From: an uncultured delta proteobacterium
GTDB taxonomy: Bacteria; Myxococcota_A; Polyangia; Haliangiales; Haliangiaceae
Direction: 5' to 3'
Length of the DNA: 64,000 nt
Assembly (NCBI GenBank): GCA_963848295.1
Contig: CAWKDB010000010.1
Span: 3,456,001-3,520,000 of the forward strand
Part shown: positions 4,095 through 20,102 of the stretch, in pieces
Numbering within the stretch: the first letter of the stretch is position 1
Layout: each line of letters begins with the position of its first letter
The notes under the pieces: model-generated
Database searches by the model: none
The model's input: only the letters and a program-made list of their open reading frames with translations
Told to the model about the DNA's origin: nothing
Position numbers and translations under genes: made by a program

Positions 4095-5090
4095 TCACGC
4101 GGGCTGCTGCTGCGTACAGCAGTGAAAGCCGCCGCCGCCGACGACGACCTCGCGACACGGCAGGCCGATCGCCCGCCGCGTCGGGAACAGCTTGCCGATC
4201 GCGGCGACCGCGCGCTCGTCGGCGGCGACGCCGTAGGTCGGCACGACGACGACGGTGTTCGCGATGTAGAAGTTCATGTAGCTCGCGGGGAGCAGTGCGC
4301 CGGCGGCGTCGCGGATTTCACCGGGCGACGGCGTTGTCACGACCTCGAGCTTCGCGGCGCGCAGATCCGCGAGGATCCCGGCGAGCGCGTCGCGATTCGG
4401 ATCGCCAGGCGCCGGCTCCATGCACGCGACGACACCTGGCGCGACGAACCGGGCGAGCGTGTCGATGTGGCCATCGGTGTGATCGTTCTCGAGGCCGCGA
4501 TCGAGCCAGACGATGCGGTCGGCGCCGAGCGCCCAGCGCAGCCTAGCTTCGAGCGCCGCGGCGTCGAGCCCCGGGTTGCGCGCGCCGCCGAGCAAGCATT
4601 GCTTCGTGGTGAGCAACGCGCCGGCGCCGTCGACCTCGATCGCGCCGCCCTCGAGCACGAAGTCGAACGCTGCGCCGCGCACGCCGGTCCACGCCATGAC
4701 GCGCGCCGAGACGTCGCTATCGCCGGCCATGACGTACTTGCCGCCCCAGCCGTCGAACCGGAACCGCGCCGCGGCGATCTCGCGATCGCGGGTCACGAAG
4801 ATCGGGCCGGTGTCGCGCAGCCAGACATCGCCGTAAGCGACGTGGTGGAACGCGACATGCGCCGCGGTCGCGCCGAGCAATGCGCGCGCTTCGCCTTCGT
4901 CGCCGGCATCGCGCACGAGCAGGTCGATGCGCTCGCCGCGGCCGCCGTCGCTGATCGCCGCGCACATCGCCATCAACGCGCGCTGTGGTGCGGCGAGCCC
5001 TTCGGCCCATTGCTCTCGATCGTGCGGCCACGCGGTCCACACCGCGGCATGCGGAGTCCACTCGGCCGGCATGCGGAACTGCGAGATCAC
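4095..5090 (-). CDS. aguA: Agmatine deiminase
   Basis: RMPAEW, DVWLRDTGP, LEGGAI, DHTDGHID, ASYMNFY, GGGFHCCTQQQP; GTG start overlaps the upstream stop (GTGA). Confidence 0.93.
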   Translation of the reverse strand: MISQFRMPAEWTPHAAVWTAWPHDREQWAEGLAAPQRALMAMCAAISDGGRGERIDLLVRDAGDEGEARALLGATAAHVAFHHVAYGDVWLRDTGPIFVTRDREIAAARFRFDGWGGKYVMAGDSDVSARVMAWTGVRGAAFDFVLEGGAIEVDGAGALLTTKQCLLGGARNPGLDAAALEARLRWALGADRIVWLDRGLENDHTDGHIDTLARFVAPGVVACMEPAPGDPNRDALAGILADLRAAKLEVVTTPSPGEIRDAAGALLPASYMNFYIANTVVVVPTYGVAADERAVAAIGKLFPTRRAIGLPCREVVVGGGGFHCCTQQQPA

Positions 5091-5611
5091 TCGTCGCTCT
5101 CCGGCTTTCGAGCCTGCGCCTGCGCCTTTAGCACCGTCACGAGCTCGCGGAACAGCGAGCGCGCTGCGCCGGGTGGCTTGCCGGTGTCGCGTTCGCGGCG
5201 CGCGTCTTGGATCGCGCGAGTCAAGTCGTCGGTCGCGCCGCCGGGAAGCTCGGCCGCCGCGGCGATGCCCTCGGTGATCAACCGCGTGCGCCACTGCTCG
5301 GCGAGCTTGAGCAGCGCCGGTGCCGCCGCGCCAGTCGTCTCGACCGTCGCGAGGCGTTGCTCGAGCGCGCCGAGATCTTCGCCGCGGAGATCGCCGGCGA
5401 GCGCGCGTTCGGCGCGGCGCCGCGCCCCGAGCGTCTTCGTGCCGCGCGCGCGATCGACCATCTCTTTCAGCTCGTCTTCGAGCTGGAGCTTCGCGATCAC
5501 GGCGTCCGAGAGCGTCATCAGTGTTCGCGCGAGCGCGGCCGATCGATCGCCCATCCGGCGTTGCTTGCGGCGCTCGATCTGGCGCTTGCTCTCACCGCGG
5601 TCATCTTCCAC
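5087..5611 (-). CDS. yjgA: DUF615 ribosome-associated protein (YjgA/DarP family)
   Basis: SKRQ..., LxxLSDAxIAKLxLxDEL, GARRR, EQWRTRLI, ARSLFREL pattern. Confidence 0.75.
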   Translation of the reverse strand: MEDDRGESKRQIERRKQRRMGDRSAALARTLMTLSDAVIAKLQLEDELKEMVDRARGTKTLGARRRAERALAGDLRGEDLGALEQRLATVETTGAAAPALLKLAEQWRTRLITEGIAAAAELPGGATDDLTRAIQDARRERDTGKPPGAARSLFRELVTVLKAQAQARKPESDE

Positions 5612-5623
5612 CGCACGACGATA

Positions 5624-7183
5624 CTACCGCCACGCCTCGTCGGGGACCGCGAGCGCACCGCCGATCCCGCGGCGGGCGGCGATGAACGCCTGCGCGAACG
5701 CGAGCGCCGAGCGGAACCGCTTCGTCTTGTCCTTCGCCATCGCGACCGCGAGCACGTCCTCGATCGCGCTCGACACGCGGCCGAGCGAGCTCGGGCGCAC
5801 CGGCGGCGTCTGCACGACCTGAAACACGAGCTCGGCGAGGTCCTTGCCGCGAAACGGCGAGCGGCCGGTCACGCAGCGATACGCGATCGCGCCGAGCGCG
5901 TAGACGTCAGCGAGATGATCGACGTCCTTGCCGAGCGCTTGCTCCGGCGCCATGTACTGCGGTGTCCCGACGATGCCACCGCCGGTCAGCGTGCCCTCGC
6001 TATCGAGCAACTTCGAGACGCCGAAATCGAGGATCTTCCAGCTCCCGGCTGCGGTGTTGAAGATGTTGTGTGGCTTGAGATCGCGGTGGACGATGCCGGC
6101 GGCGCGCGCGACCTCGAGGCCGCGCGCGACTTGATCGAGCAGCACGACGAGCTCGTCTTGCGGCAAGCGACTCTCGGCGCGCAACCGCGTCGCGAGATCC
6201 GTCCCGTGCAAGCGCTCCATCGCGATGTACGGCACGAGCGCGCCGGGCGGCGCCAGCTCGAGCACCCTGACGATGTACGGCGAGTCCAAGCGCGCCGCGA
6301 CTTCCATCTCGCGATGAAACCGCTCGAGGTGCGCCGGCGAGCCTGCCGCCTGCGCGTTGACGAGCTTGACCGCAGCGGGTTCGCCGTCGTTGCCGATCGC
6401 CTCGTAGACCTCACCCATCGCGCCGCGTCCGATCACGAGGCCGAGTCGATAACTGCCCATCGCCTGGCCGGTCCACCTGCCTTCGTTCACCCGCTTCGCT
6501 TTCGCGGCATCGTCGACGACCTCGGCGAGCGCTTGCTGCTGGTCGCCGATCAGCCGCATCGCGCTCTGCAGCTCGGCGAGCGCCGTCGAGTTCGTCTTTC
6601 GCGCCCACCGTCCGAGCGCATAACCCGAAGTCAAGAACACGACGATCAATGTCTCCGCCACCGCGAGCTGGGTCCGGCCCGCGACGATGCTCGACAACAC
6701 GCCGGGGTCGCGCAGCCAACCGAGTGTCATCGGAATCGCGAGCGCGAGGTGGCCGCCGATGCAGATGCAAGCGGTCGCCGCGGCGGTCCACCGGACGCGG
6801 CCGAGCGAGATGAACACGATGCCGAGCATGTCGACCATGACGACGGCGGAGAACGGCCCGAAGTAGTAGACCGCGCCCTGCACGCCGACGGTCGAGAGGA
6901 TCCACATCAGGCCTACCGCGGTCGGCTCGTAGCGCTTGGCGTCGAGCGTGAGCCAGGTCAGCACGATGTTGCAGCCCGAGATCATCCCCGCGCCGATCCA
7001 GAACAGATGGCGCGCGAACGGGTCGCCGCCGATCATCACCGACATCACGACCGCGGCGACCGGCGAGAAGATGCCGAACACGTGGAACATGCGCAGTCGC
7101 GCGAGCTCGCCGCGGTCGAGGACCTCGCCGGCCGTCGCCGTCACGCGCAACGACACGGTCGGTGTCTGCGTCTGGCGCAGCAC
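5624..7183 (-). CDS. Membrane-anchored Ser/Thr protein kinase (N-terminal multi-TM domain)
   Basis: GRGAMG, AVK, HRDLKPHN, DFG, APE; several N-terminal hydrophobic helices. Start may be CTG at 7225. Confidence 0.9.
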   Translation of the reverse strand: MLRQTQTPTVSLRVTATAGEVLDRGELARLRMFHVFGIFSPVAAVVMSVMIGGDPFARHLFWIGAGMISGCNIVLTWLTLDAKRYEPTAVGLMWILSTVGVQGAVYYFGPFSAVVMVDMLGIVFISLGRVRWTAAATACICIGGHLALAIPMTLGWLRDPGVLSSIVAGRTQLAVAETLIVVFLTSGYALGRWARKTNSTALAELQSAMRLIGDQQQALAEVVDDAAKAKRVNEGRWTGQAMGSYRLGLVIGRGAMGEVYEAIGNDGEPAAVKLVNAQAAGSPAHLERFHREMEVAARLDSPYIVRVLELAPPGALVPYIAMERLHGTDLATRLRAESRLPQDELVVLLDQVARGLEVARAAGIVHRDLKPHNIFNTAAGSWKILDFGVSKLLDSEGTLTGGGIVGTPQYMAPEQALGKDVDHLADVYALGAIAYRCVTGRSPFRGKDLAELVFQVVQTPPVRPSSLGRVSSAIEDVLAVAMAKDKTKRFRSALAFAQAFIAARRGIGGALAVPDEAWR

Positions 7184-7228
7184 CGGATCCGCCGTGGTGG
7201 CGTCGAGTTCTTCGGCGGCGGGCAGTGT

Positions 7229-8884
7229 CTAGCTCCAGGGATCGAGCGGCGGATCGAGCTTAACCGCACGACCGCGCCGTGCCGAGATAAACGCCTGCGC
7301 GAATGACAGCGCCGACGGAAACCGCCGGCGCGGGTCCTTGGCCATCGCGACCGCGAGCACCTCCTCGATCGCGGGCGAGATCCTCGCAAACGCGGTCGGT
7401 GCCGCCGGTGGCACGTGCACGACTTGATAGACGAGCTCGGCGATGTCCTTGCCGGCGTGCGGCGCGCGACCCGTGATGCAGCGATACGCGATCGCCGCGA
7501 GCGCATAGACATCGGCGGCGTGGGTGACCTCGCGCCCGGCGGCCTGCTCCGGCGCCATGTACTGCGGCGTGCCGACGATGCCCTCGCCGGTCAGCGTGCC
7601 CTCGTCGCCCAACAGCTTCGACACGCCGAAGTCCAGGATCTTCCAGATGCCACCTTCGTTGTTGAACAGGTTGTGCGGCTTGAGATCGCGATGGACGACG
7701 CCGGCGACCCGCGCGACCTCGAGTCCCCGGCCGACCTGGTCGAGCATCACGACGAGCTCCTCGAGCCAGATCCGGTTCTCGTTGCGCAGCCGCGTCGCGA
7801 GATCGGTCCCGTTCAACCGCTCCATCGCGATGTACGGCACGCGCGCGTCGGGCGGAGAAATCTCCAACACCTTGACGATGTACGGCGACGACAGCCGCGC
7901 CGCGACCACCATCTCGCGGTGAAAGCGCTCGACCAGGCTCGTGCTCGCGGTCGACCGCGCGTTCAGCACCTTGACCGCGGCGATCTCGCCGGTCGGCGTC
8001 TTCGCCTCGTAGACCTCGCCCATCGCGCCACGGCCGAGCACGAGCCCGAGGTCGAAGCTGCCGAGCTTGCGTCCGGTCCACCGGCCCTCGTCGATGCGGT
8101 TCGCGCGCGCGGCGTCGTCGCGCACTTCGGCGAGCGCTTGTTCTTTGTCGCCGAGGATCCGCATCGCGCTGCGCAGCTCGGAGAACGCGGCGGTGTTCGT
8201 GCGTCGCGCCCACCGACCGAGCAAGTAACCCATGAACAAGAGACTCGTCAGTAACCCACCGGTCATGTAGAGCGTCTTCGGCGCGATGCCGGCCGAGGTC
8301 AGCAAGCTGTGGTCCGCGATCGTGCCGCTCGCGATCGCCATCGTCATGACGAGCTCGCTCGTCGCGCAGATCGCGACGGTCATCGCCGCGACGATGCGGT
8401 GCCTGCCAAACGTCACGAACGCGATGCCGAGTACGTCGATCATGACCGCGCCCGAGAACGGCCCGAAGTAGAAGATGATCGTGCGCACGCCGATCACCGA
8501 GGTCAGCCAGCACGCCGCGGCGAGCCGTTCGCGATAGCGTTCGGACCGCGACGTCAGCCACAGCAGGGCGAGATTCGATAGCGACACCACGACCGCGCCG
8601 ATCCAGAACGCGAGCCGCACGTCGCGATCGCCGCCGAGCACGAACGACAGCGCGATCGCCGCGATCGGCCCGACCGCACCGAACAAGTGGAACGCGTGGA
8701 GTCGTGGCTCGGCATCGGGTCCGAGGTCGGGCGATGCCGACGGCGACGATTGCGACGACGACGAACCGGTCGTGTGCGAGCGCGTGCCGTGCGCGATGGC
8801 ATGAGGAGTCTCGGCCTCCGTGCCGCCGGATGCCGTGCCCTCGCCGGCCAGGACCGCCGTCGCGTCCGCGTCCGGATCCAACAC
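7229..8884 (-). CDS. Membrane-anchored Ser/Thr protein kinase, tandem paralog
   Basis: Same architecture and motifs as 5624-7183. Confidence 0.9.
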   Translation of the reverse strand: MLDPDADATAVLAGEGTASGGTEAETPHAIAHGTRSHTTGSSSSQSSPSASPDLGPDAEPRLHAFHLFGAVGPIAAIALSFVLGGDRDVRLAFWIGAVVVSLSNLALLWLTSRSERYRERLAAACWLTSVIGVRTIIFYFGPFSGAVMIDVLGIAFVTFGRHRIVAAMTVAICATSELVMTMAIASGTIADHSLLTSAGIAPKTLYMTGGLLTSLLFMGYLLGRWARRTNTAAFSELRSAMRILGDKEQALAEVRDDAARANRIDEGRWTGRKLGSFDLGLVLGRGAMGEVYEAKTPTGEIAAVKVLNARSTASTSLVERFHREMVVAARLSSPYIVKVLEISPPDARVPYIAMERLNGTDLATRLRNENRIWLEELVVMLDQVGRGLEVARVAGVVHRDLKPHNLFNNEGGIWKILDFGVSKLLGDEGTLTGEGIVGTPQYMAPEQAAGREVTHAADVYALAAIAYRCITGRAPHAGKDIAELVYQVVHVPPAAPTAFARISPAIEEVLAVAMAKDPRRRFPSALSFAQAFISARRGRAVKLDPPLDPWS

Positions 8885-8950
8885 ACCTCGAGCGTATCAG
8901 GCTTCCGGTCGCGGGCTTCCCGGATCGCGGGAGGTCAAACAGCCCCGACG

Positions 8951-9643
8951 CTACCCGTCGAGCCCGACGTAGATGTGCTGGACGTCATCGTCTTCGTCGA
9001 CCTCGGCGAGAAACTGTTCGACTTCTGCGCGCGCCACGGGATCGGCGACCTTCACAGGATTCTTGGGTCGCCAGCCGAGCCGCATCGTCGCCACCGTCCA
9101 GTCACGACCGGACAGCGACTTCGTGACCGCGTCGAGATCGCCGGTCTCGGTGTAGAACCGAAATCCGCCCTCGCCATCCGGCTCGAAGTCCTGCGCACCC
9201 GCTTCGATCGCGGCTTCTTCCGGGTCGGCGCCGGCGGGCGGGGTCGCATCGACGATGCCGACGTGCGTGAAGTCCCACGCGACGGCGCTGAGCTGGCCGT
9301 TGCGGAAGTGATGGCGAATGTTGACCGAGGTCCGCTTGTTGTTGTCGGTGAGGCACTCGACGATCACCGGCACGCGATGCGGCGCGAAGCCTTCGTAGAC
9401 CACCGTCTCGTAGGTCGTCACGTCATCGAGTAGGCCGGCGCCCTTCTTGATCGCGCGCTCGAGTGTGTCGCGCGGCATCGAGGCCTTCTTCGCGGCTTCG
9501 ACCGCCGCGCGCAACCGCGCGTTGGCCGCCGGGTCGGCACCGGCCTTCGCGGCGATGATGATCTCCTTCGCGAGCTTCGAGAACACCTTGCCCTTCGCGG
9601 CCGCGCTCGCGAGCCGACCCGCGTGCTTCCATTGTGCGCCCAT
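8951..9643 (-). CDS. yebC: YebC/PmpR (TACO1) family protein
   Basis: [51 protein letters not shown]. Confidence 0.92.
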
Positions 9644-9673
9644 GGCCGGCTTGTAACGTTGTACGTTGCCGCC

Positions 9674-10360
9674 ATGCAAGGCCGACGTGTCCTCGTCACT
9701 GGTGCCACCGGCGCGCTCGGCGCCGGCGTCGTCGCGAAGTTGCTAGCCGCGGGCGCCGACGTCTACGCGCCGATCCTCGAGGCGGCATTGCCGGCGCACT
9801 TGCCATGGCGCGCCGATCCGCGCGTGCACGCGATGCCGAACGCGTCGCTCGACGACGAAGCGCAGGTCGGCAAGCTCTACGACGTGCCCGAGCTGTGGGC
9901 CGCGATCCACCTCGTCGGCGGCTTCGCGATGGCGCCGATCACGTCGACGTCACTCGCTGACCTCGAGAAGCAGTGGCGGCTCAACCTCGTGACCTGCTTC
10001 CTCGGCTGTCGGGAGGCGGTGCGCGCGATGCAACGCGGCAAGGCCGGTGGCCGGATCGTCAACGTCGCGGCTCGGCCGGTCGTTGCGCCGGTCGGCGGCA
10101 TGCTCGCGTACACGACGGCGAAGGCGGGCGTCGCGGCGCTGACCCAAGGGCTGGCCGCCGAGGTCCTCGGCGAGGGCATCCTGGTCAACGCGGTGATGCC
10201 CTCGATCATCGATTCGGCGGCGAATCGCGCGGCGATGCCGAACGCCGACTTCGCGAGCTGGCCGAAGCCGGCCGAGATCGCCGAGACGATCGCGTACCTC
10301 GTCTCGCCCGCGAACGCGCTGACATCGGGAGCGCTCGTGCCGGTGTTCGGGCGCGCCTAA
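9674..10360 (+). CDS. Short-chain dehydrogenase/reductase
   Basis: [22 protein letters not shown]. Confidence 0.9.
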
Positions 10361-10363
10361 CCC

Positions 10364-11449
10364 GTGACGTCCGCGGTGGTGCCGGCGACCGCGCGCGCCG
10401 CGATCGATCGCTGCGAGCGCGCGTCGCTGGTGTTCGATCTCGAGACGATCGAGAGCACGGTGCGCCGCGTCGCCGAGCTCGCGCATGCGCATCGCATTCG
10501 CGTGTTGTTCGCGGCGAAGTCGTTTCCACATCCGGCGGTGCGCGCGGTCGCGGCGCGGCATCTCGACGGCTTCGATGTCGCCTCGCCGGCGGAGCTCGGC
10601 GCTTGTGCGCCGCTCGTGCAGATGATCTCGATCGCCGATCCATCGGGCGCTGCGATCGCGGCGGCGGCGAGCACGAACGGCCGGCTGATCGTCAGCTGCG
10701 ACACCGTCGAGCACGTGCGGGCAGCGCCGGCGCATGCGGCGATCGCGATCCGCTTGTCCGCATCGTTGACCGGGCGCGATCCGGCGATCGGCGCGGTGCT
10801 CGACGGCAACGGCCATCATCGCTCGCGGTTCGGGCTCGATGTCGATCCCGCGCGCCGGCGCGCCGCGGTCGGCGAGCTCGTGCGCGCGGCGGCGGGGAGG
10901 CCGATCGGCTTGCACGTCCATCACGGGCCGATCGTCGCGGCGTCGGCGGAGCGATTCGTCGCGACCGCTCGGGCTGCGCTCGCCGCCGTCGAGGTCGCGC
11001 CCGCGTTCTTGAACCTCGGCGGCGCGTGGCACGGCATCGCCGATCTCGACGCGGCGTTCGCGACGGTGCGCGCGGCGGTGCCCGCCGACCTCGAGCTCGT
11101 GATCGAGCCGGGCCGGTTGTTCTCCGCCGGCGCCGGCTTCGCGGTCGGCCGAGTCACGGCCGCGCGTTCGCTCGACGATCGCGAGCTGCGACTGCTCGAC
11201 CTGTCGCGGATCTGCCACCTGCGCTGGAGTCCGATCGAGCTCGTCGCGCGCGCGCCGGCGCCGGGCGAAGGCCGCGCCGTGCTCTACACCGGCCCGACGT
11301 GCTTCGAGGAGGATGTGCTCGGCGAGTGGACCGTCGCGCCCGCGGTCGCGGCGGAACCGCGCGCGGTGTTCCGCGGCGTGACCGGCTACGCGCTCGCGTG
11401 GAACGTCGGGTTCGCGGGCGTCCCGCCGGCGGACGTCATCGTCTGCTAG
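10364..11449 (+). CDS. PLP-dependent fold-III decarboxylase (LysA/ODC/NspC-like)
   Basis: FAAKS (PLP lysine), DVAS..EL, SRFG, GLHVH, NLGG, EPGR, GPTC..D. Confidence 0.8.
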   Translation: MTSAVVPATARAAIDRCERASLVFDLETIESTVRRVAELAHAHRIRVLFAAKSFPHPAVRAVAARHLDGFDVASPAELGACAPLVQMISIADPSGAAIAAAASTNGRLIVSCDTVEHVRAAPAHAAIAIRLSASLTGRDPAIGAVLDGNGHHRSRFGLDVDPARRRAAVGELVRAAAGRPIGLHVHHGPIVAASAERFVATARAALAAVEVAPAFLNLGGAWHGIADLDAAFATVRAAVPADLELVIEPGRLFSAGAGFAVGRVTAARSLDDRELRLLDLSRICHLRWSPIELVARAPAPGEGRAVLYTGPTCFEEDVLGEWTVAPAVAAEPRAVFRGVTGYALAWNVGFAGVPPADVIVC

Positions 11450-11568
11450 CGCCAATGCCGCTCAGATAACGTTGACCTTGACCTGAACGGTGAACCTGAA
11501 CTTGAACGGCACCTTAGACGTTGTCGTTGACACCGCAACTCCAGAGTTGTGTGGCCGATAGCCCGGTC

Positions 11569-11903
11569 ATGCTCAGCTTCCAGAAGCTTCGCGTCGATCA
11601 ACGCTCGATCGAGTTCCTCGCGCTGGCACTGGAGATCATCGGCGAGCTTCCGAAGGGTCATGCCGAGCTTGCCGATCAGCTGGTCCGCGCCGCGCAGTCG
11701 CAACCGCGTAAGATCGCCGAGGGTGCGGGTCGTCGCACGAACGTCGATCAGGCTCGCCTCTACGCGCACGCGCGCGGCTCCGCGATGGAGGCCGCAGCGG
11801 CTTTGGACACGATGCGAGTCCTGAAGTTGGTCGGCGAGACGACCTACGCGCGCGGCATCGATCTACTTGAAGCATCGTGGCGATGCTCACCAAGATGACC
11901 TGA
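11569..11903 (+). pseudogene. Four-helix-bundle protein (TIGR02436 / 23S-IVP / Avd-like), 1-nt frameshift near 11872
   Basis: MLSFQKL, ELADQLVRAAQS, IAEGAGR, ARGSAMEAAA; the family-typical C-terminus IVAMLTKM is in another frame, ending TGA 11903. Could be a sequencing error. Confidence 0.8.
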
Positions 11904-11986
11904 TCGGGTCGACGTCAATGTCCAAGGTGGCGTTGATGTTCATGTTCATGTCGAGGTCAAGGTCAACGCACTTATCTGAGCGGCAT

Positions 11987-12157
11987 GTGCGCCAGGCCAA
12001 GCCTGGGAGAGGAGAACGGATGGATATCCGCCTCTTCCGCCCAAGGTCGTCCACAGCATCTACCGGACGTAGCGAACCCGTGGACGAAGAGCCGGATGCC
12101 GGAAATCGGCACGTCCGGATCTGTGGGAGCCCCGGGTCACACCCGGGGCAACCCGAC
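11987..12157 (+). ncRNA. Miniature/internally deleted group II intron (171 nt)
   Basis: 5' GUGCG; domain V GAGCCGGAUGCCGGAAAUCGGCACGUCCGGAUC (12089-12121: AGC triad, GAAA loop, AC bulge); domain VI hairpin with unpaired A, ending CCCGAC; GYPPLPPKVVHSIYRT* resembles an intron-RT C-terminus. DV/DVI are secure; the 5' end is less so. Confidence 0.8.
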
Positions 12158-12175
12158 TGCTGCTAGCGCGTGCTG

Positions 12176-13567
12176 TTACTGGTCCGCGGGCGGCGCCTCT
12201 TCGACCGGCGCGTCGGGCACGACCGGCTCGGCGCCACCGCCCGCCGGCGCGAGGTCCGAGCGATCGACGCGCAAGCTGTCGGTCGAACGCGGCAACGCAT
12301 CGGCGCGGCGCGGCGGGAAGGTCAGCGCGAACGTGAAGTACACGGTGTTGCGCAGGTACGACGGGATCAGCAGCGCCGCGCGCGAGTCGCCGTTCTGCGC
12401 GAGCAGCTCGTAGCGCAAGCCATAGGTCTGGTTCGGCGCGGGCGAATAGGTCACGCCGAGGTCGAAGTGGGTCACGTAGAACGTCCCGTCGTTCGCACTC
12501 GTGTTCGCGTCGAGCAGCTCGGTGAGATCGAAGCCGATCGAGCCGAGCAGGTTGACCTTCGGCGCGCCGGTGTGGGTCGTGCCCAGCCAACTCAGCGGGA
12601 GTGCGAGCTGGAGGAGCGCGAGGTCGTCGCGGGTGTTCTGCGCGATCAAGAGATTTGGCGCGACGGTCTGGCGGACCTGCAACGTCGCGCGCCCCCAGGT
12701 ATCGGCGTACGCGACGAGCGCTCCGCCGGCGGGCAACACGGTCGCGTGCTGCGCTACGGTCGTGTCGATCGTGTGCAGCGGCACGATGGCCACGCCGCCG
12801 GCGTCGACGTTCATGCTCCAGCGGCGACCAAAGTCGCGGCGCCAGATCACGCGCGCCCGCGGATCGATCTGCTCGGCGAGCTGAACCGGGCCGACGACGC
12901 CCATCGCCAGCGTCTGCTGATCGAGCCGGAGGTATGCTCCGCCGAGCTCGAGGGCGAGCGAGTCGTGGTCGAAGGTACGCTCGATCGAGCCGAGCGCGCC
13001 CGCCTCGGCCGAGTCGATCGTGTCGTTCATCGCATCGGTGGTATCGACCACGTGGCCGTAAGCGGTCTCGGTGAGCCTCGACTTCTCGGTCACCTCGTAC
13101 GAGGCGGATTCGCTGACATCGGCCTGGCGGACCGTCTCCTGGCCCGCCGGCTGGACCATGACGCCGGTCTGGTCGGGCGACGTGCGCGCCGCCAGGGCGC
13201 TGAGCTTGCCGGTGCTCGCGTCGACCAGCGTGGTGACCTGCGACCGCGGTCCGGGCGTCCAGAACGCCCGCCACGCCGCGCGGAATTGCAGCGATGGTTG
13301 GTCGTTGTGGACCACGTACTCGAGCACCTCGGCCTCGGCGGTCAGCTCGTCGATCAGGGTCGGGCCCTCGTGGGCGAGCAGCAGGCCGGGCCGGACGTCG
13401 AAGAACACGTCGGCCTCGCGGTCGCCGTCGGCCGGCGCCGCCAGGGCGTTGTCGGTCGTCGCCACGCTCCCGTTGGCCGTGACGTGGTACGTGGTATCAG
13501 CGCGAGCATACGAGGCAGCCAACGCGATGACGCTTCCAAACGCAACCGCGGGCAGGGGCCAGCGCAC
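12176..13567 (-). CDS. Secreted/outer-membrane beta-barrel-like protein (possible polysaccharide-export barrel)
   Basis: Signal peptide (AYARA-D); alternating amphipathic beta-strands; near Wzy/GT genes (inference). Confidence 0.55.
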   Translation of the reverse strand: MRWPLPAVAFGSVIALAASYARADTTYHVTANGSVATTDNALAAPADGDREADVFFDVRPGLLLAHEGPTLIDELTAEAEVLEYVVHNDQPSLQFRAAWRAFWTPGPRSQVTTLVDASTGKLSALAARTSPDQTGVMVQPAGQETVRQADVSESASYEVTEKSRLTETAYGHVVDTTDAMNDTIDSAEAGALGSIERTFDHDSLALELGGAYLRLDQQTLAMGVVGPVQLAEQIDPRARVIWRRDFGRRWSMNVDAGGVAIVPLHTIDTTVAQHATVLPAGGALVAYADTWGRATLQVRQTVAPNLLIAQNTRDDLALLQLALPLSWLGTTHTGAPKVNLLGSIGFDLTELLDANTSANDGTFYVTHFDLGVTYSPAPNQTYGLRYELLAQNGDSRAALLIPSYLRNTVYFTFALTFPPRRADALPRSTDSLRVDRSDLAPAGGGAEPVVPDAPVEEAPPADQ

Positions 13568-13668
13568 CGCTTTTCTTGTAGCACGGGCTGCCGATGTCCA
13601 AAGGTCGCGCTAGTGGTTGACAGCCCTCGCTGGCGCCGTGCTTAGAATCTCTAGAAGGCATCTTACAA

Positions 13669-14595
13669 ATGCGCAGTGATCCTCCCGAAGAGCTCCCACC
13701 CCTGTTTGCCGCTGCCCCGCGCAAAGTCGAGCGCGAAGAGGACGAAGAAGACGCGGGCGATGAGGACGACGACGACGCCGAGGACGAGGACGACGACGAC
13801 GATGTCGGCGGCGCCGATGACGACGATGAAGAAGAGGACGAGCCCGACGACGAAGACGACGGTGCCGACAAGGTAGCCGACGAGGGCTGGTCACCGGCGA
13901 CGCCCGCCGACGACGAATGGGTCGAGGGCGAGGAGAAGCCCGAGGAAAAAGACAAGGACGAAGACGAGGAAGAGGACGACGCCGACGTCGGTGGTTGGCG
14001 TGAAGGCACCGCGCGCCCGCCGTGGGCCGGCGAAGAAGACGAGGACGACGACGACGATGATGATGACGACGACGAGGACGACGAAGAAGACGACGACGAT
14101 GACGTTGACGACGAGGACGACGAGGACGAAGAAGAGGACAAAGTAGCCGCTCGCCCGCGCGCGATCATCCGCGACGACGGCGACGACGACGACGATCCGC
14201 CGGCGAAGGACGACGACGACGAAGAAGAGGAGCGCGACGAGCGTCCGCCGCGTGGCCCGATCCCACCGCGCCCGGCCAAGCCGTTGCCGATGGGGAAGCA
14301 ACCGATCGTGGTTCCGGCCAAACCGGGCACCACCCCCGTCAGGCCGCTGGTTCCGGTCGCCAAGACACCGGTCGCGCCTGCGCCGGCGAAGCCTACGCCA
14401 CCTGCGAAGCCGACTTCGCCGCCGCCTGCGCCAGGCAAGCCGGCTGCGCCGCCGCCCGCCGCGAAGCAGCCACCCGCGAAGCCCGCGGCGAAACCGGCCG
14501 CCAAGCCCGCCGCTAAGCCCGCCGCCAAGCCGGCCGCCGCGAAGAAGCCAGCGCCGAAGAAGCCGGCGGCCAAGAAGCCCGCGAGGAAGAAGTAG
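13669..14595 (+). CDS. Low-complexity protein: Asp/Glu-rich N-half, Pro-rich linker, PAAK/histone-H1-like tail
   Basis: Long poly-D/E tracts followed by KPAAKPAAK...KKPARKK. Confidence 0.7.
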   Translation: MRSDPPEELPPLFAAAPRKVEREEDEEDAGDEDDDDAEDEDDDDDVGGADDDDEEEDEPDDEDDGADKVADEGWSPATPADDEWVEGEEKPEEKDKDEDEEEDDADVGGWREGTARPPWAGEEDEDDDDDDDDDDEDDEEDDDDDVDDEDDEDEEEDKVAARPRAIIRDDGDDDDDPPAKDDDDEEEERDERPPRGPIPPRPAKPLPMGKQPIVVPAKPGTTPVRPLVPVAKTPVAPAPAKPTPPAKPTSPPPAPGKPAAPPPAAKQPPAKPAAKPAAKPAAKPAAKPAAAKKPAPKKPAAKKPARKK

Positions 14596-14634
14596 CGCCC
14601 GATCTCGCGCACTTAGGAAATCGTTCGGGAGCGC

Positions 14635-14663
14635 TGCGACTTTCCGTTAGGGTCGGGGCGTCT
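14635..14663 (+). promoter_or_regulatory. Candidate autoregulated ECF promoter (TGCGACT-N16-GCGTCT)
   Basis: 20 nt upstream of the ECF sigma start; matches the motif at 111-138. Confidence 0.45.
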
Positions 14664-14683
14664 CGTGGTCAGAGCCACGAACG

Positions 14684-15238
14684 ATGACCGATACGAGCCA
14701 TGCCTGGGACGAGCTGTCGGAGCTGCTCGCGCCGATCCACGACGACGTGCAGTTGTTCGCACGTCGGATCGCGCGATCGAACGCAGAGGGCGACGATGTG
14801 TTCCAGGAAGCCGTGCTGCGGGCCGCCCGCAAGCTCGGATCGCTGCGCGATCGGTCGCGCTTCAAGTCCTGGATGTTCAGCGTAGTCGCGTCGGTGCACC
14901 GCACGCGCTATCGCCGATCGTTCTGGACGCGGTGGATCAGTGACGAAGTCGCGCCCGATCCCGTCGGTGACGACGGATCGCGATGGGCCGATGATCGAGC
15001 GAGCGCGAGTCGTGCGACCGCGGCGCTCGCGACGCTGTCACCACCGCAGCGCGAAGCGATCGTGCTGTTCGAGCTCCACGGTAACTCGATCGACGAGATC
15101 GCCGAGATCCAAGAGACCTCGGTGTCGTCGGTGAAATCGCGCCTCGTGCGAGGTCGCGATCGGCTGCGCGAATATTACGTGCAGCTAGGAGAACCGGAAC
15201 CCCGTAACGACCTCACCGAGGAGGTGTGCCGTGGATAA
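14684..15238 (+). CDS. ECF RNA polymerase sigma factor
   Basis: Region 2 DDVFQEA..FKSWMF; region 4 LSPPQREAIVL...EIAEI...SVKSRLVRGR. Confidence 0.92.
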   Translation: MTDTSHAWDELSELLAPIHDDVQLFARRIARSNAEGDDVFQEAVLRAARKLGSLRDRSRFKSWMFSVVASVHRTRYRRSFWTRWISDEVAPDPVGDDGSRWADDRASASRATAALATLSPPQREAIVLFELHGNSIDEIAEIQETSVSSVKSRLVRGRDRLREYYVQLGEPEPRNDLTEEVCRG

Positions 15239-15869
15239 CCGCCTGTCTGAAGATCTCGCCGCCCTCGGCGAACGCTCGCAGCATCAGCTGCGAACGATGG
15301 CAGCGACACGCGCACACATCCTCTCCGCTCAGGAGAATTCGAAGATGCGCTTTTTCAAGAATCGTCCAATGCTCGCCGTGTTGATGGTGCTCGCTCTAGT
15401 CGGTGTCGCCAGCGGCGCCGCTTATGCGGTCGACCGCGTGTTCCTGCAGGTCGATCCCGACGAGACCGCGCCGCAGATTCAACAGGACGTGACGACGCAA
15501 TTGCAGAACGCTGGCGTGACGGCTGATGTGCACGCCGACAAACGCGATGGCAAGATCGAAGTGAAGATCGCGACGAGTGATCCAACGTTACCCGGCCGAC
15601 TCGATGTCAGCGCGCTCGGTGGGGCCGAGGTCGAGAGCGACCAGGGCGAGCTCACGATCGAAGTGCAAGCCAAGCTCGGCGACGCGCAGATCGCGCAGTT
15701 GACCAGCGCCGGGTCGAGCACCGACGTGCTGACCGCGTTGGCGATCGCCGAGACCAAGGGCGACACCGCGCCACTTGCCGCTGCATTCGCAGCACACGGC
15801 TTTCACGACGTGACGATCAACGTCGCCGGCACGTCGGTGACGGTGACGATCACCGCACCGCCGAGGTAA
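15231..15869 (+). CDS. Putative anti-sigma factor / single-TM protein
   Basis: Overlaps the ECF stop, GAGG RBS, short cytoplasmic part, one TM, extracytoplasmic domain. Confidence 0.55.
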   Translation: MDNRLSEDLAALGERSQHQLRTMAATRAHILSAQENSKMRFFKNRPMLAVLMVLALVGVASGAAYAVDRVFLQVDPDETAPQIQQDVTTQLQNAGVTADVHADKRDGKIEVKIATSDPTLPGRLDVSALGGAEVESDQGELTIEVQAKLGDAQIAQLTSAGSSTDVLTALAIAETKGDTAPLAAAFAAHGFHDVTINVAGTSVTVTITAPPR

Positions 15870-15872
15870 TGT

Positions 15873-17252
15873 CTAGACATAGCCTTTGATCCTGAGGAAG
15901 ATCGGCAGCACGACGATCGCGTAGAGCAGCGTGATCGCCGCGACGATGACCAGGTCGCGTGCGGTCATCGAGATCTTGAGCTCGGGGCGATGGTGGCGAA
16001 CCGCCGAGTACCAAGCGCCGACGATCCCGAACAGGATCCACAGCGACGGATGATACGTGAACGACAGCGTGTTGATCTGAAATCCGGCCCCGGCGAGCGC
16101 GGCGAGTAACGCCATGCCCCACCCGCGCGCCGATTCGGTGCCCGGCACACTCTCGAGCTCGCGCGTTCCGACGATCAGGATCTTGAGCGACAGGTACATC
16201 ATCGTCAAGAACAGGTAGAGACCGGGCAGGCCGAGCTCGGCGAGCGCGAGGACGTACGAGTTGTGGGCGGTCAGGTTGTGGTGGTGAACGAACTGACCGG
16301 CGCCGACGCCGAATAACGGGCTGTGACGGAACATCTCGAGCCCGGTCGCCCACGCCTCGTAGCGTTCTTGCGTCGATTGATCGGCATCGCCGCCACTGCG
16401 ACTGCCGAACACGAGCACCGGGATCACGATCAACGCGACCGGGATCACAGCTCGCCAGCCATAGCGTCTGATCACGAATACACCGGGGACGAGCATCGCG
16501 GCGATCAGGCCGCCGCGCGACTCGGTCATGAACACGGTGACCAGCACGACGGCACACGCCACCCCGGTCGTGAAGTAGGTGCCGGCCTTTCGTCTACGAA
16601 GCGCGAACCCGATCAGCATCGCGAGCCCGCACGAGCTCATCACGAGCGCGACTTCGTTCGGATCGTGGAGGTCGCCGCGATAGCGCACGCGATCCTCGAC
16701 GCTGTAGGTGCCGAACCAGCCGATGTGCTCGCAGCGATAGTCGAGGGTCTCGTCGACGCCCGGGCCGACGCATTGCTCCGACGTCTCGCACAGGCGGCCG
16801 TCCGGCGTGCCTTCGATCGCTCCGTTGTTCTCTTCGCCGGCGATGCATCCGCGAGGAGCGAGCCCTTGGTCGAAGCACACCGCGGTGATGAATAGCGTCG
16901 AGGCCGTGAGTGCACCGACGACGAACCCGAATGTGCGGAATCGCTGGACGCCGTGCGCGATCGTGCCGTACAGCGTCAGCAAGATCGCCATCTCGATCAG
17001 CTTCGGCACGATCGTGTCGGGTGCGGTGAACGCCGTCGCGATGCCCACCCACACCACGAACGCGATCGCCCAGGGCATCGTCGCGCTCGCGATCGGCTGG
17101 AGCCGGCGGAGCCGCACGTCGATCGCGTAGCCCACGAGCGCGAGCAACGCGAACAGATACAGCATCGGTATCTTCTGGAGCAGCGGTACGAACTCCTGCG
17201 GCCTCACCATGATGAAGACGATCAAGAGCCCGATGCCGGGGAGCGCGAACAC
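15873..17252 (-). CDS. O-antigen ligase / Wzy_C family membrane protein
   Basis: Multi-TM; DPNE, TESRGG, R..AW..G..MF..SPLFGVGAG.F, AHNSY...AELG. Confidence 0.88.
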   Translation of the reverse strand: MFALPGIGLLIVFIMVRPQEFVPLLQKIPMLYLFALLALVGYAIDVRLRRLQPIASATMPWAIAFVVWVGIATAFTAPDTIVPKLIEMAILLTLYGTIAHGVQRFRTFGFVVGALTASTLFITAVCFDQGLAPRGCIAGEENNGAIEGTPDGRLCETSEQCVGPGVDETLDYRCEHIGWFGTYSVEDRVRYRGDLHDPNEVALVMSSCGLAMLIGFALRRRKAGTYFTTGVACAVVLVTVFMTESRGGLIAAMLVPGVFVIRRYGWRAVIPVALIVIPVLVFGSRSGGDADQSTQERYEAWATGLEMFRHSPLFGVGAGQFVHHHNLTAHNSYVLALAELGLPGLYLFLTMMYLSLKILIVGTRELESVPGTESARGWGMALLAALAGAGFQINTLSFTYHPSLWILFGIVGAWYSAVRHHRPELKISMTARDLVIVAAITLLYAIVVLPIFLRIKGYV

Positions 17253-17330
17253 GCGGTGCGATCATCGCTTATATACGCGGCGTTTGGTGACGAACTGGAT
17301 CCGCGCGCCAGGGCAGCCGAAAATTTTCCA

Positions 17331-17729
17331 ATGCAGGACCATCGTCGCCAGAGCCCGCGCATAGCCGCCTCCGCCCTGTGCTGGGAGGTGATCGACGATC
17401 GCGAGACCTCCGCGCTCGTCGTGGATTTCTCGTCGACCGGCGCTCGCGTCGAGCGGCCGTACCTCGGAGGGCGGATCGCGCGCCACGTCCCGCTCCAGCT
17501 CGAGGTCCCCGGCATCGACGAGGTGATGTGGGCGCGCGCCGATCTCGTGTTCGATCAGCTCGTGCCGACGAAGCTGCTCGCGAGCCCGTTCGGGCTGCTG
17601 CGCCGCACCGGCTATCGGATCGCGCTCGCCGCGGCCCGCGATCTGCGCTTGCTCAAAGAGTTCGTGTTCGAGCGCGATCGCGCGCTGCAGTGCGAAGAAG
17701 CGTTGCTGTTCGCCAGTTGCTACCGATAG
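17331..17729 (+). CDS. PilZ-domain protein
   Basis: RRQSPR (RxxxR) and DFSSTG (DxSxxG) c-di-GMP motifs. Confidence 0.75.
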   Translation: MQDHRRQSPRIAASALCWEVIDDRETSALVVDFSSTGARVERPYLGGRIARHVPLQLEVPGIDEVMWARADLVFDQLVPTKLLASPFGLLRRTGYRIALAAARDLRLLKEFVFERDRALQCEEALLFASCYR

Positions 17730-17750
17730 CTGTCGGCGCTACAGCAGGGC

Positions 17751-20102
17751 GTGGCCGCCGCGATCGCCGACTGGTTGTGGGGCTGGGACCCGACGCCAGG
17801 GATCGTCTCGGTCGCCGCGGAGCCGGACGGCCGCGCGATCGTGTGGCGACGCAGCGCGGGCGAGCTGATTCGCGAAGACGTGCGGTTTCGGCCGTGGATG
17901 CTCGTCGCCGATGCGGCGGATCTCGGGCCGGCGGTCGGCGTGCACGAGCTCTCGGGTCCGGGCGCGCTGCGCTACTTCGTACGCGCCGACCATCTCGACG
18001 CACTCACCGCCGCGGTGTTGCGCGCGGAGTCGCGGCGGAGGGGCTACGGCGTTCGCCACCTGCGCGATCTGCCCGACGACACCGCGCTCGCGTTACCGCC
18101 CGAGGAGCAGTACCTCGTCACGACCGGTCGCGTGTACTTCCGCGGCCTGTCGTACGACGAGCTCCATCGCCTCCAGTTCGATCTCGAGACGACCGGGCTC
18201 GATCCGGACCGCGATCGGATCTTCCTGATCGCGGTGCGCGATCCGGATGGCGCGACGACGATCCTCGAAGCCGAAGGCGCCGGCGACCGCGATGCCGACG
18301 AGGCGGCGCTGATCGCGCGGTTCGTCGCCCACGTGCGTTCGGCCGACCCGGACGTGATCGAAAATCACAACCTGCACGGCTTCGATCTGCCGTTCCTCGA
18401 GCGTCGCGCACGGCTGCTCCACGTACCGCTCGCGCTCGGTCGCGCCGGGCCGCCGGGATTGCGCGCTCGCCCCGCTCGCCGCGGTGTCGCCGCGCGTGCC
18501 GGCGATGCCACGCGCAAGGTTCGCTACACGATCGTCGGCCGCGAGCTGATCGACAGCATGGATGCGGTGCGGCGTCACGACTTCGCCGCGCACGATCTGC
18601 CGAGCTACGGGCTCAAAGCGGTCGCGCGCCACTACGGCCTGGCCGAAGCCGAACGCGAAGAGCTTCCCGGGGCGCAGATCTACGACGTCTGGCGCCGCGA
18701 TCGCGCGCGGGTCGTGCGCTACGCCTCGTCCGACGTCGCCGAAGCGGCGGCGCTCGCCCGCTTGCTCGGCGGCGGCACGTTCGCGCTCGCGCAGATGGTG
18801 CCGCGGCGCTACGAGCGACTCGCCGAGACCGGCGCGGCGACCGGCATGGTCGATCCGCTGCTCGTGCGCGCGTACATTCGCTCGGGCGCCGCGCTGCCCG
18901 GACACGAGCCGAGCGACGGCACGCCGCACAGCGGGGCAGCGCTGCATCTGTTCGCAGCCGGCGTCGCGCATCGCATCGTCAAGGCCGACGTCGCGAGCCT
19001 GTATCCGTCGTTGATGCGGTCGTATCGGATCGGGCCGGCGCGCGACCGTCTCGGCGTGCTGCTCGCGCTCGTCGATCAGCTCGTCGAGCAACGGCTCGCC
19101 GCGAAGGCGCTCGGCAAGGCGGCGCCGCCGGGCTCGGCCGAGCGGTTTGGCCACGAGGCGGTGTCCGCGGCGATGAAGCTCGTCGTCAACTCGGCCTACG
19201 GCTATCTCGCGGCCGGCAGCTTGACGCGCTTCGCGGACGTCCACGCGGCGAACGAGGTGACGCGGCGCGGCCGCGAGGTGCTCGCGCTGCTGTGTCGAGA
19301 GCTCGCGGCGCGCGGCACGACGTTGCTCGAAGCCGACACCGACGGCGTGTACGTCGCGGTGCCCGAGGCGTGGATCGAAGCCGACGAGCGCCGCGTCGTC
19401 GCCGAGGTCGCCGCGCTGCTCCCCGACAAGGTCCACCTCGAATACGACGGGCGCTACGCCTCGATGCTGTCGCACGAACCGAAGAACTACGCGCTCCAGC
19501 GCTACGACGGCGGGCTCGTCATGCGCGGCGTCGCGTTTCGATCGAGTCGGGCCGAGCCGTTCGGCGAGCGGTTCCTGCGCGACGCGATCACCCGGTTGTT
19601 CGCGGGCGATGTCGCCGGCGTGCGCGAGGCGTATCTCGCGACGATCACCGCATTGCGCCGGCGCGCGATCGCGACCCGCGACGTGGCCGCGCGAGCGCGG
19701 TTGACGAAGCCACCGGCGGACTACTACGCCGCGCGCGAGTCGAGGCACGAGCCGCCGTACGAAGCGGTGATCGCGAGCGGGCGCGCGGACTGGACTGTCG
19801 GCGAGCGCGTCCATGTCTATCGCGCGGTGCGAGGTCGTCCCGCGGTGCTCCCCGAGGATGCCGATCCTCGCGACTACGACGTCGAGCACTATGTTCGCCT
19901 GCTGCGCGACACGTTCGCGACGCGCCTCGTGCGTGCGCTCGAGCCCGACGACTATGCCGCGGTGTTCGCGGATCCCGATCAGCTGTCGTTGTTCGCGCGT
20001 CCGCTGCACGCGGCGCGTCCGATCCTGACGGCGCTAGCGCGCGAACCGGGCGTAGAGCTCGAGGTAAGCGTCGACCATGGTCTCGGCGGAGAATCGCGAT
20101 AG
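17751..20102 (+). CDS. Family-B DNA polymerase with 3'-5' exonuclease domain
   Basis: Exo FDLETTG, NHNLHGFDLPFL, YASSD; Pol DVASLYPS, KLVVNSAYG, ADTDG, PKNY. Confidence 0.9.
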   Translation: MAAAIADWLWGWDPTPGIVSVAAEPDGRAIVWRRSAGELIREDVRFRPWMLVADAADLGPAVGVHELSGPGALRYFVRADHLDALTAAVLRAESRRRGYGVRHLRDLPDDTALALPPEEQYLVTTGRVYFRGLSYDELHRLQFDLETTGLDPDRDRIFLIAVRDPDGATTILEAEGAGDRDADEAALIARFVAHVRSADPDVIENHNLHGFDLPFLERRARLLHVPLALGRAGPPGLRARPARRGVAARAGDATRKVRYTIVGRELIDSMDAVRRHDFAAHDLPSYGLKAVARHYGLAEAEREELPGAQIYDVWRRDRARVVRYASSDVAEAAALARLLGGGTFALAQMVPRRYERLAETGAATGMVDPLLVRAYIRSGAALPGHEPSDGTPHSGAALHLFAAGVAHRIVKADVASLYPSLMRSYRIGPARDRLGVLLALVDQLVEQRLAAKALGKAAPPGSAERFGHEAVSAAMKLVVNSAYGYLAAGSLTRFADVHAANEVTRRGREVLALLCRELAARGTTLLEADTDGVYVAVPEAWIEADERRVVAEVAALLPDKVHLEYDGRYASMLSHEPKNYALQRYDGGLVMRGVAFRSSRAEPFGERFLRDAITRLFAGDVAGVREAYLATITALRRRAIATRDVAARARLTKPPADYYAARESRHEPPYEAVIASGRADWTVGERVHVYRAVRGRPAVLPEDADPRDYDVEHYVRLLRDTFATRLVRALEPDDYAAVFADPDQLSLFARPLHAARPILTALAREPGVELEVSVDHGLGGESR

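Follow-up and report, generated by a model that had tools for sequence, protein, structure and literature searches.

The 171-nt stretch at positions 11987-12157 (plus strand) of the 64-kb DNA analysed here, which we call the window, is very probably a dead relic, present in a single copy, that internal deletion has left of a longer group II intron. We regard it as a remnant because both tips of the intron have been kept but the middle required for splicing and moving has been lost, and it is the exact register of these tips that gives it the look of a mini-intron. The sequence-only reading had proposed, as one of two possibilities, a dead internal deletion of an intron that had homed into a repeat family. 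This proposal is supported by a longer parent with the same 5′ end and the same target, found in this genome and in relatives.

The stretch opens with GTGCG at 11987 and closes with ...CCCGAC at 12157, so that GUGYG and AY boundaries lie at a precise exon junction. An Rfam search, suggested in advance as a check, returned RF00029 at 12087-12157 (model positions 1-77, E 1.2e-5) with 45.2 bits against a cut-off of 40 bits, the sole Rfam match within the 64-kb window. Together with the 5′ ends of sister copies, this confirms the claimed group II 5′ end and intact domains V and VI. Domain V (12089-12122) carries the AGC triad at 12090-12092 and a 5-nt loop, GAAAU, at 12102-12106, and domain VI (12123-12157) contains a predicted bulged branch A at 12151 and the terminal AC. 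Over both domains the identity with the parent is 71/71, and both intron tips are likewise unmutated. What precedes them is short: 11987-12026 corresponds to parent nt 1-40, the start of domain I, and 12027-12088 to the 3′ remnant of domain IV (parent nt 1551 onward), comprising the final reverse transcriptase (RT) codons with the stop TAG at 12070-12072 and a hairpin formed by 12047-12054 and 12080-12087. Beyond nt 1-40, the domain I scaffold with EBS1 is missing, as are domains II and III and the J2/3 linker (parent nt 41-1550). The predicted fold of the 171-mer (-80.7 kcal/mol, z -3.35; none of 200 shuffles equally good) shows domains V and VI and all three compact hairpins that had been described upstream of domain V, hairpins 1 and 3 being made entirely of parent-derived sequence and hairpin 2 straddling the deletion junction.

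BLAST of the 171-mer against the genome it comes from (G000; 7.78 Mb, 11 contigs, 85% complete) splits it into two blocks. The first, nt 1-40, is 39/40 identical to the beginnings of two further copies (C2:797061-797022 and C10:2116765-2116726), and the second, nt 39-171, matches C2:795513-795381 at 98.5%. The C2 blocks belong to one longer copy of 1681 nt (C2:797061-795381), which lies behind the same exon as the window copy. The earlier caveat that the 5′ boundary could be chance thus falls away, because the C2 copy shares its 5′ end and exon with the window copy. In terms of this parent copy, the 171-mer consists of nt 1-40 plus nt 1549-1681, fused at a microhomology of 2-4 nt (the 3′ piece proper being the last 131 nt): GATA at 12023-12026 when compared with three sister alleles, TA when compared with the C2 allele. 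Along with the intervening sequence went the predicted EBS1, domains II-III, and almost all of both domain I and the RT gene. The suggested BLASTN search for further copies had a divided outcome, recovering the longer parent with the same 5′ end and target and no second copy of about 171 nt.

None of the seven G000 copies is whole. They lie in the window and at C2:795381-797061, C11:720981-722025, C10:4056505-4057241, C10:2646879-2647163, C10:2116408-2116765 and C2:1221122-1221146; the breakpoints differ in each, and several of the sister copies have kept their outer ends and lost their interior. Among them, only the C2 copy retains domain I, and it too is damaged, with about 300 nt of the RT missing and a frameshift. 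The best RT matches in G000 cover aa 123-440 of the 440-aa RT of an intact relative (L067, below) and are frameshifted, and we found no intact RT of the parent intron in the 85%-complete assembly; the RT of a different intron, 37% identical, lies at C11:619-620 kb. Two sister copies stand in a curious relation: at C2:795370-797604 and C11:720970-722222 the target duplications are swapped, the left 10-mer of each being the other's right flank (one of the swapped 10-mers with a 1-nt loss), which points to reciprocal recombination or rearrangement via the intron or the element. In both copies, RT sequence also resumes at one shared position (L067 nt ~952).

What did the intact intron look like? 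L067, a relative with 93% and 85% identity to the two parts of the C2 copy, measures 1993 nt and encodes a 440-aa RT/maturase (TIGR04416, 339 bits; cut-off 300 bits). Its ORF spans nt 586-1908, leaving about 670 nt of non-ORF RNA. A 5-nt domain V loop and 450-700 nt of non-ORF RNA are given as features of IIE/IIF introns in a published paper (PMC3753933), and judged by its GAAAU loop and by the non-ORF length of L067, the parent fits the IIE/IIF type; the best plasmid RT matches are unclassed ltrA proteins with 55-56% identity. Nt 218-223 of the parent, located in a hairpin loop, read ATGCTG and are complementary to the final six exon bases, CGGCAT, at 11981-11986 of the window. We predict that this loop is EBS1 and that it pairs with IBS1 in the exon. 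The loop is kept in four relatives, where it can pair with the respective exon over 5-6 bases (for instance, ATGCTG with CAGCAT in L062 and ATGCC with GGCAT in L098), and in a fifth relative, which has a different exon, there was no match to the loop pattern.

The target is shared beyond this genome. The three G000 copies that retain a 5′ end all follow ...GAGCGGCAT, and L067 lies at the equivalent point in a similar repeat, where a 10-mer centred on CTAG comes after ...GGCAT|TG. The genome collection contains 22 loci bearing the 5′ end of this intron; eight of them have a similar exon ending in CAT (L056, L058, L059, L062, L067 and L070-L072), and a matching left arm lies 214-409 nt upstream in five of the eight; L067 also has one. 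In genomes G049 and G047, which may overlap the 22-locus set, the bases next to the intron 3′ ends are TG or CG, and after them comes a CTAG-like 10-mer. A pattern search for the exon-intron junction, allowing one mismatch, gave matches in 18 of 138 family genomes; the reversed control matches too, three of six inspected loci outside G000 have an intron 5′ end, and many of the matches are probably chance. At one further locus, L019 (G009:C645:1-430), the terminal …CCCGAC of an intron is immediately followed by an intron 5′ end with C in place of the initial G, which is either a head-to-tail or circle-type DNA junction or a collapsed repeat.

The host of the window copy is an IS4-type element at 11453-12159. 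Its left end is a 17-bp perfect terminal inverted repeat (TIR) starting from CAATG and extended as an imperfect palindromic arm of ~80 nt (11453-11531). Its right arm up to the intron (11908-11986) forms the 5′ exon, and TG at 12158-12159, the final two bases of the right TIR, forms the 3′ exon, placing the intron two bases inside the repeat. The element begins CAATGCCGCTCAGATAA; once the intron is taken out, the right end matches the left as a perfect reverse complement (17/17). A perfect CTAG-centred 10-bp target-site duplication, CTGCTAGCGC, lies on either side of the element, at 11443-11452 and 12160-12169 (10/10). Intron-free copies exist at C10:4408268-4408346, which reads ...GGCAT and then TG, and at C2:270987-271526; each has its own 10/10 duplication, they also carry deletions, and the direct repeats at two other element loci are 9/10 and 8/10. 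An insertion into the element's terminal repeat, as had been supposed from the sequence alone, is thus supported by the restored TIR and by the intron-free alleles. The accompanying count of 22/24 matches to the left arm was right and its reading was not, since the TIR ends at TG and the remaining bases belong to the target-site duplication. An attC-like or REP-like site, which the CTAG-flanked palindrome had also brought to mind, was dropped because its variable bases are the 10-bp direct repeat.

With CAATG CCGCTCAG ATA at 11453, the element matches the end signature of subgroup IS4 in the IS4 family, -AATR--------WTW, and its duplication, like those of both intron-free copies, falls in the 10-13 bp range of direct repeats listed for that subgroup in Table 1 of PMC2266710. 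It differs from subgroup members in carrying a four-helix-bundle passenger instead of a DDE/YREK transposase, in the manner of a MITE or cassette. Because its sole ORF is this PF05635 gene, we consider the element a non-autonomous derivative.

Several observations on the surroundings may be recorded here. Upstream, the ORF at 10364-11449 (plus strand) encodes a PLP-dependent decarboxylase-like protein (PF02784). Its TAG stop falls within the duplicated target, and the insertion has therefore left the ORF intact; several further copies of the element likewise appear to lie at TAG stops. G000 has another element that targets CTAG and whose ends differ from those of the host element, in the form of seven near-identical 1.64-kb insertion sequences (L194-L199 and L203) with a DDE_Tnp_1 transposase and CTAG on both sides. 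At G000:C2:436425-437013 (L001), the 3′ portion of another group II intron (47.5 bits in Rfam) is fused head to head, by deletion, with half of the same IS4-type element. Farther away in the window, 5624-7183 and 7229-8884 (minus strand) are tandem paralogous ORFs resembling membrane Ser/Thr kinases (motifs identified by eye), with about 75% identity over stretches of 230-300 nt at a spacing of 1605 nt; 13669-14595 (plus strand) encodes 308 aa in which Pro/Ala/Lys-rich repeats come after a long tract rich in Asp/Glu; and the 783-aa ORF at 17751-20102 (plus strand) has family-B DNA polymerase-like motifs, again by eye.

Taken as a relic, the 171-mer would have arisen in three steps. First, the element with its passenger inserted at the CTAG-centred site, an insertion that the 10-bp duplication documents. 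A ~2-kb RT-encoding intron of the IIE/IIF type then came to occupy its present position in the repeat, presumably by retrohoming, with EBS1 (AUGCUG) predicted to pair with CGGCAU. Finally, at least 1.5 kb (about 1.8 kb if the intron was still intact) were lost between two points sharing 2-4 nt. This last event may have taken place during replication, reverse transcription or end-joining repair, and was probably guided by a long-range stem. Among 1596 downstream windows of the parent, the right breakpoint is the best partner of the 25 nt that precede the left breakpoint (nt 16-40 with nt 1547-1570; -22.1 kcal/mol, compared with -11.7 kcal/mol for the native local partner of the same 25 nt). A coincidence of partner and breakpoint within 6 nt is estimated to arise by chance at about 1% per junction, or ~4-5% over those tested. 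Stem guidance as a general rule was abandoned, being seen at one of six junctions, the window's only: the partner ranks of the other five were 0.12-0.52 (RNA) and 0.06-0.72 (DNA), in a survey that misplaced the left breakpoint of C10b and inflated the overlap of C10a. For the window copy, a complementary stem that joined the endpoints and guided the deletion is the simplest reading; the junction hairpin would then be a cause of the deletion and not a selected product, and the hairpins of the 171-mer would be either inherited or by-products of the deletion.

Loss of EBS1, the domain I scaffold and domains II-III would prevent the 171-mer from splicing or homing in cis. According to the same paper (PMC3753933), domain I provides the scaffold and the EBS sites, and domains II, III and VI are needed for splicing; from these known roles, neither splicing nor retrohoming would be expected. 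A recent deletion explains why the tips and domains V and VI are unmutated, with which function is likewise compatible. As to the setting, G000 encodes Ku (PF02735; C11:598946-599474), present as two pieces in different frames owing to a frameshift or a sequencing error, and this Ku-like gene is compatible with end-joining as the origin of the deletions. Two other loci, L167 and L063, are broken 30-45 nt past the 5′ end, L167 resuming in RT sequence, and the region 30-45 nt after the intron 5′ end may be deletion-prone.

Could the remnant nevertheless have been put to use? An improbable alternative is that a dead intron has been kept, or tuned, as a structured 3′ element (a terminator or stability hairpins) of the Avd-like gene. 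This passenger ORF (11569-11898, plus strand; 109 aa) encodes a four-helix-bundle protein of the 23S rRNA IVP/Avd-like type (PF05635, E 1.7e-15; TIGR02436, E 2.2e-14), and the 171-mer follows 88 nt downstream of its stop on the same strand. Two substitutions, at 12032 and 12036, are private to the window copy, the pair being absent from the other alleles compared, and they strengthen the junction hairpin from -11.2 to -13.8 kcal/mol. Random pairs of substitutions equal this gain in 1.9% of trials and, when restricted to nt 41-54, in 40 of 819 cases; the test was post hoc, and the stretch is also polymorphic among sister copies. The stem and the private changes leave a small opening for selection on structure, and co-option of intron remnants has been raised as a possibility in part of the literature (in a passage of PMC4181065). 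Against such a role, the passenger ORF is apparently frameshifted in the window copy: compared with the C2 copy, its last ~10 residues are out of frame through a 1-nt loss near 11871, which may be a sequencing error; contigs of sequencing run X1 show an extra G there. Moreover, the short form is not conserved outside the G000 strain (0 of 137 other family genomes), and RNA run X20 (share 0.05) yields pieces of related introns, none of which crosses the junction among the matches listed.

The Avd-like neighbour had also been taken as a hint at a diversity-generating retroelement, in which avd lies beside the DGR RT and template and variable repeats. This suggestion is not supported. The gene is a passenger of the element, and of nine related introns occupying such transposon ends (picked for this type of 5′ exon; 329-899 nt examined), just one has a four-helix-bundle gene upstream. 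Searching the window with the intron RT as query gave no match at E 1e-5, and no template/variable repeat pair appeared among the 20 largest repeat families shown for 5000-20000. Because of the single such gene among the nine related introns and the lack of an RT in the window, we regard the link as incidental.

Slightly less probable still is the second possibility offered from the sequence alone, a non-autonomous mini-intron completed in trans. Here, a read-through transcript from the same-strand Avd-like gene would base-pair with another RNA that contributes domains I-III, and a sibling RT would splice or mobilise it, as in tripartite organellar introns. Both splice-site ends and domains V and VI are indeed intact, the fold is compact, one G000 copy (C2) has a full domain I, and, as described in a portion of a 2015 review (PMC4424553), tripartite trans-splicing organellar introns with breaks in domains I and IV do exist. 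A hairpin rebuilt where the native one was cut, and tightened by the two private changes, might mean that the 171-mer is kept as a substrate. It is hardly to be expected that we are looking at a bacterial intron-in-pieces in the making, a splice substrate for which a sister copy provides domains I-III and the RT; were this so, nature would have divided a bacterial intron into a substrate part and a catalytic part, an arrangement unreported according to the consulted portion of the review, a counterpart of the tripartite organellar introns and a step toward a spliceosome-like division of labour.

The claim of complementation in trans fares poorly: the short form is single, it has lost EBS1 and domains II-III, and neither an intact RT of this intron nor a second example was found. 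An intact helper copy could be missing from the assembly, which is 85% complete. The sole domain I donor it does contain is a complete 5′ half, which would be expected to fold on itself, and according to that portion of the review trans-splicing introns were unreported from bacteria as of 2015 (PMC4424553). The 171-nt junction occurs at one locus in G000. An 80-mer spanning it was found in G000 alone among 138 family genomes, and the exact junction pattern gave no match in metagenome contigs, in collections that may omit records of this or very close genomes. Nor was a homologous mini seen among related 5′ ends. We assembled 142 loci with related 5′ ends (22 from genomes and at least 120 from metagenomes, where 3 of 64 parts were scanned and about 2700 are estimated), of which 98 with at least 250 nt of downstream sequence were kept and 44 with under 200 nt were left out. 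In a profile search, no domain V lay within 250 nt of the 5′ end in any of the 98, nor within 600 nt in any of 65. The same profile detects the mini at E 1.4e-14; it was built from the same locus set and can miss diverged domains V, since it found one in only 26 of 36 loci with at least 2000 nt. The shortest family members keep about 630-730 nt before domain V, which lies at about 635-800 nt from the 5′ end (4 of 30 with a domain V match); these four, L142, L096, L110 and L081, are candidates for genuine ORF-less introns that would retain domains I-III. The 171-mer thus has neither the complete DI-DVI ribozyme of an ORF-less intron mobilised in trans nor several short-form copies at independent sites, and a literature search covering few subscription journals found no publication on miniature or non-autonomous introns without domain I.

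We give very little credence to a third alternative, in which a composite of MITE and mini-intron is the mobile unit and the short form travels as IS4-type cargo. The perfect 10-bp duplication surrounds the composite, and the sister copies that keep their ends and lose their interior resemble MITE derivatives. The intron, however, splits the last 2 bp off the right repeat, which should block transposase binding, and the 171-mer is present at one locus only. A cognate IS4 transposase was not found in G000: Nterm_IS4 gave 0 matches, and the ends of two multicopy DDE elements that we inspected differ from those of the host element. L098 has an IS4 transposase gene (PF13006 and PF01609), and behind it a relative of the intron occupies an end of this type.

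An assembly artefact, whether a collapsed repeat or a chimera, would be favoured by the multicopy nature of element and intron and by an incomplete assembly with probable indel errors, but it can be set aside with near certainty, as two of four public runs, belonging to different studies, have contigs that span the junction without a single difference and extend more than 31 nt to either side (X1, 11972-12066; X2, 11931-12088), each carrying both private substitutions. The short form is therefore real DNA. The X1 junction contig has a depth of 3.3, compared with 2.7-4.8 for single-copy neighbours; X1 carries the window's strain at about 3x and may be the source sample of the assembly. Neither run covers the flanks, which fits the low depth.

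As a dead relic, the 171-mer takes its place among the fragmented group II introns of bacteria, a common kind into which it fits. Excerpts of earlier work describe an RmInt1 copy from whose interior nt 1520-1844 have been deleted, along with FRE652 (PMC4181065), and 111 intron fragments, 55 distinct copies, in 90 Enterobacteriales genomes (PMC3522654). Like these, the window copy is decayed, lies beside longer relatives and inside a mobile element, and has lost part of the ribozyme; it differs in the unusual extent of the loss, about 91% of a 1993-nt intron. The parent shares its 5-nt domain V loop and about 670 nt of non-ORF RNA with group IIE/IIF introns, whereas the domains essential to activity are missing from the window copy. 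Bacterial introns that lack an ORF and are assisted in trans by a related intron-encoded protein, according to the consulted portion of the 2015 review (PMC4424553), resemble the 171-mer in having no ORF of their own and in having related introns in the genome. Unlike the single-copy 171-mer, which is without domains I-III and for which no intact helper RT was found, they keep a self-splicing ribozyme. The same portion describes the group III introns of Euglena as 90-120 nt long, devoid of domain V, numerous and located in essential genes (PMC4424553). With these and the tripartite psaA intron 1 the 171-mer shares a very small size, both boundaries and a missing middle. It is no group III intron, however, being 171 nt long with an intact domain V, single, located in a transposon end and showing no sign of splicing.

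The relic itself matters little, beyond illustrating that an intron may come to look like a designed mini-intron through a clean internal deletion, a resemblance that sister copies expose. Its parent lineage is of wider interest. RmInt2 is an RmInt1-related intron of class D, whereas the parent has the 5-nt, IIE/IIF-like domain V loop. Both target inverted repeats of insertion sequences: in the sections of PMC4615759 devoted to it, RmInt2 of Sinorhizobium meliloti GR4 homes into the inverted repeats of ISRm17. The lineage described here differs in that its target lies 2 nt from the tip of IS4-subgroup ends, mostly in non-autonomous elements, and it uses either end of the element, the right one in the window and the left one, relative to the passenger gene, at C2. 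In several genomes, then, a sub-lineage of the IIE/IIF type appears to home 2 nt inside IS4-subgroup terminal repeats by way of a short predicted EBS1-IBS1 pairing, and would thereby extend the strategy of RmInt2.
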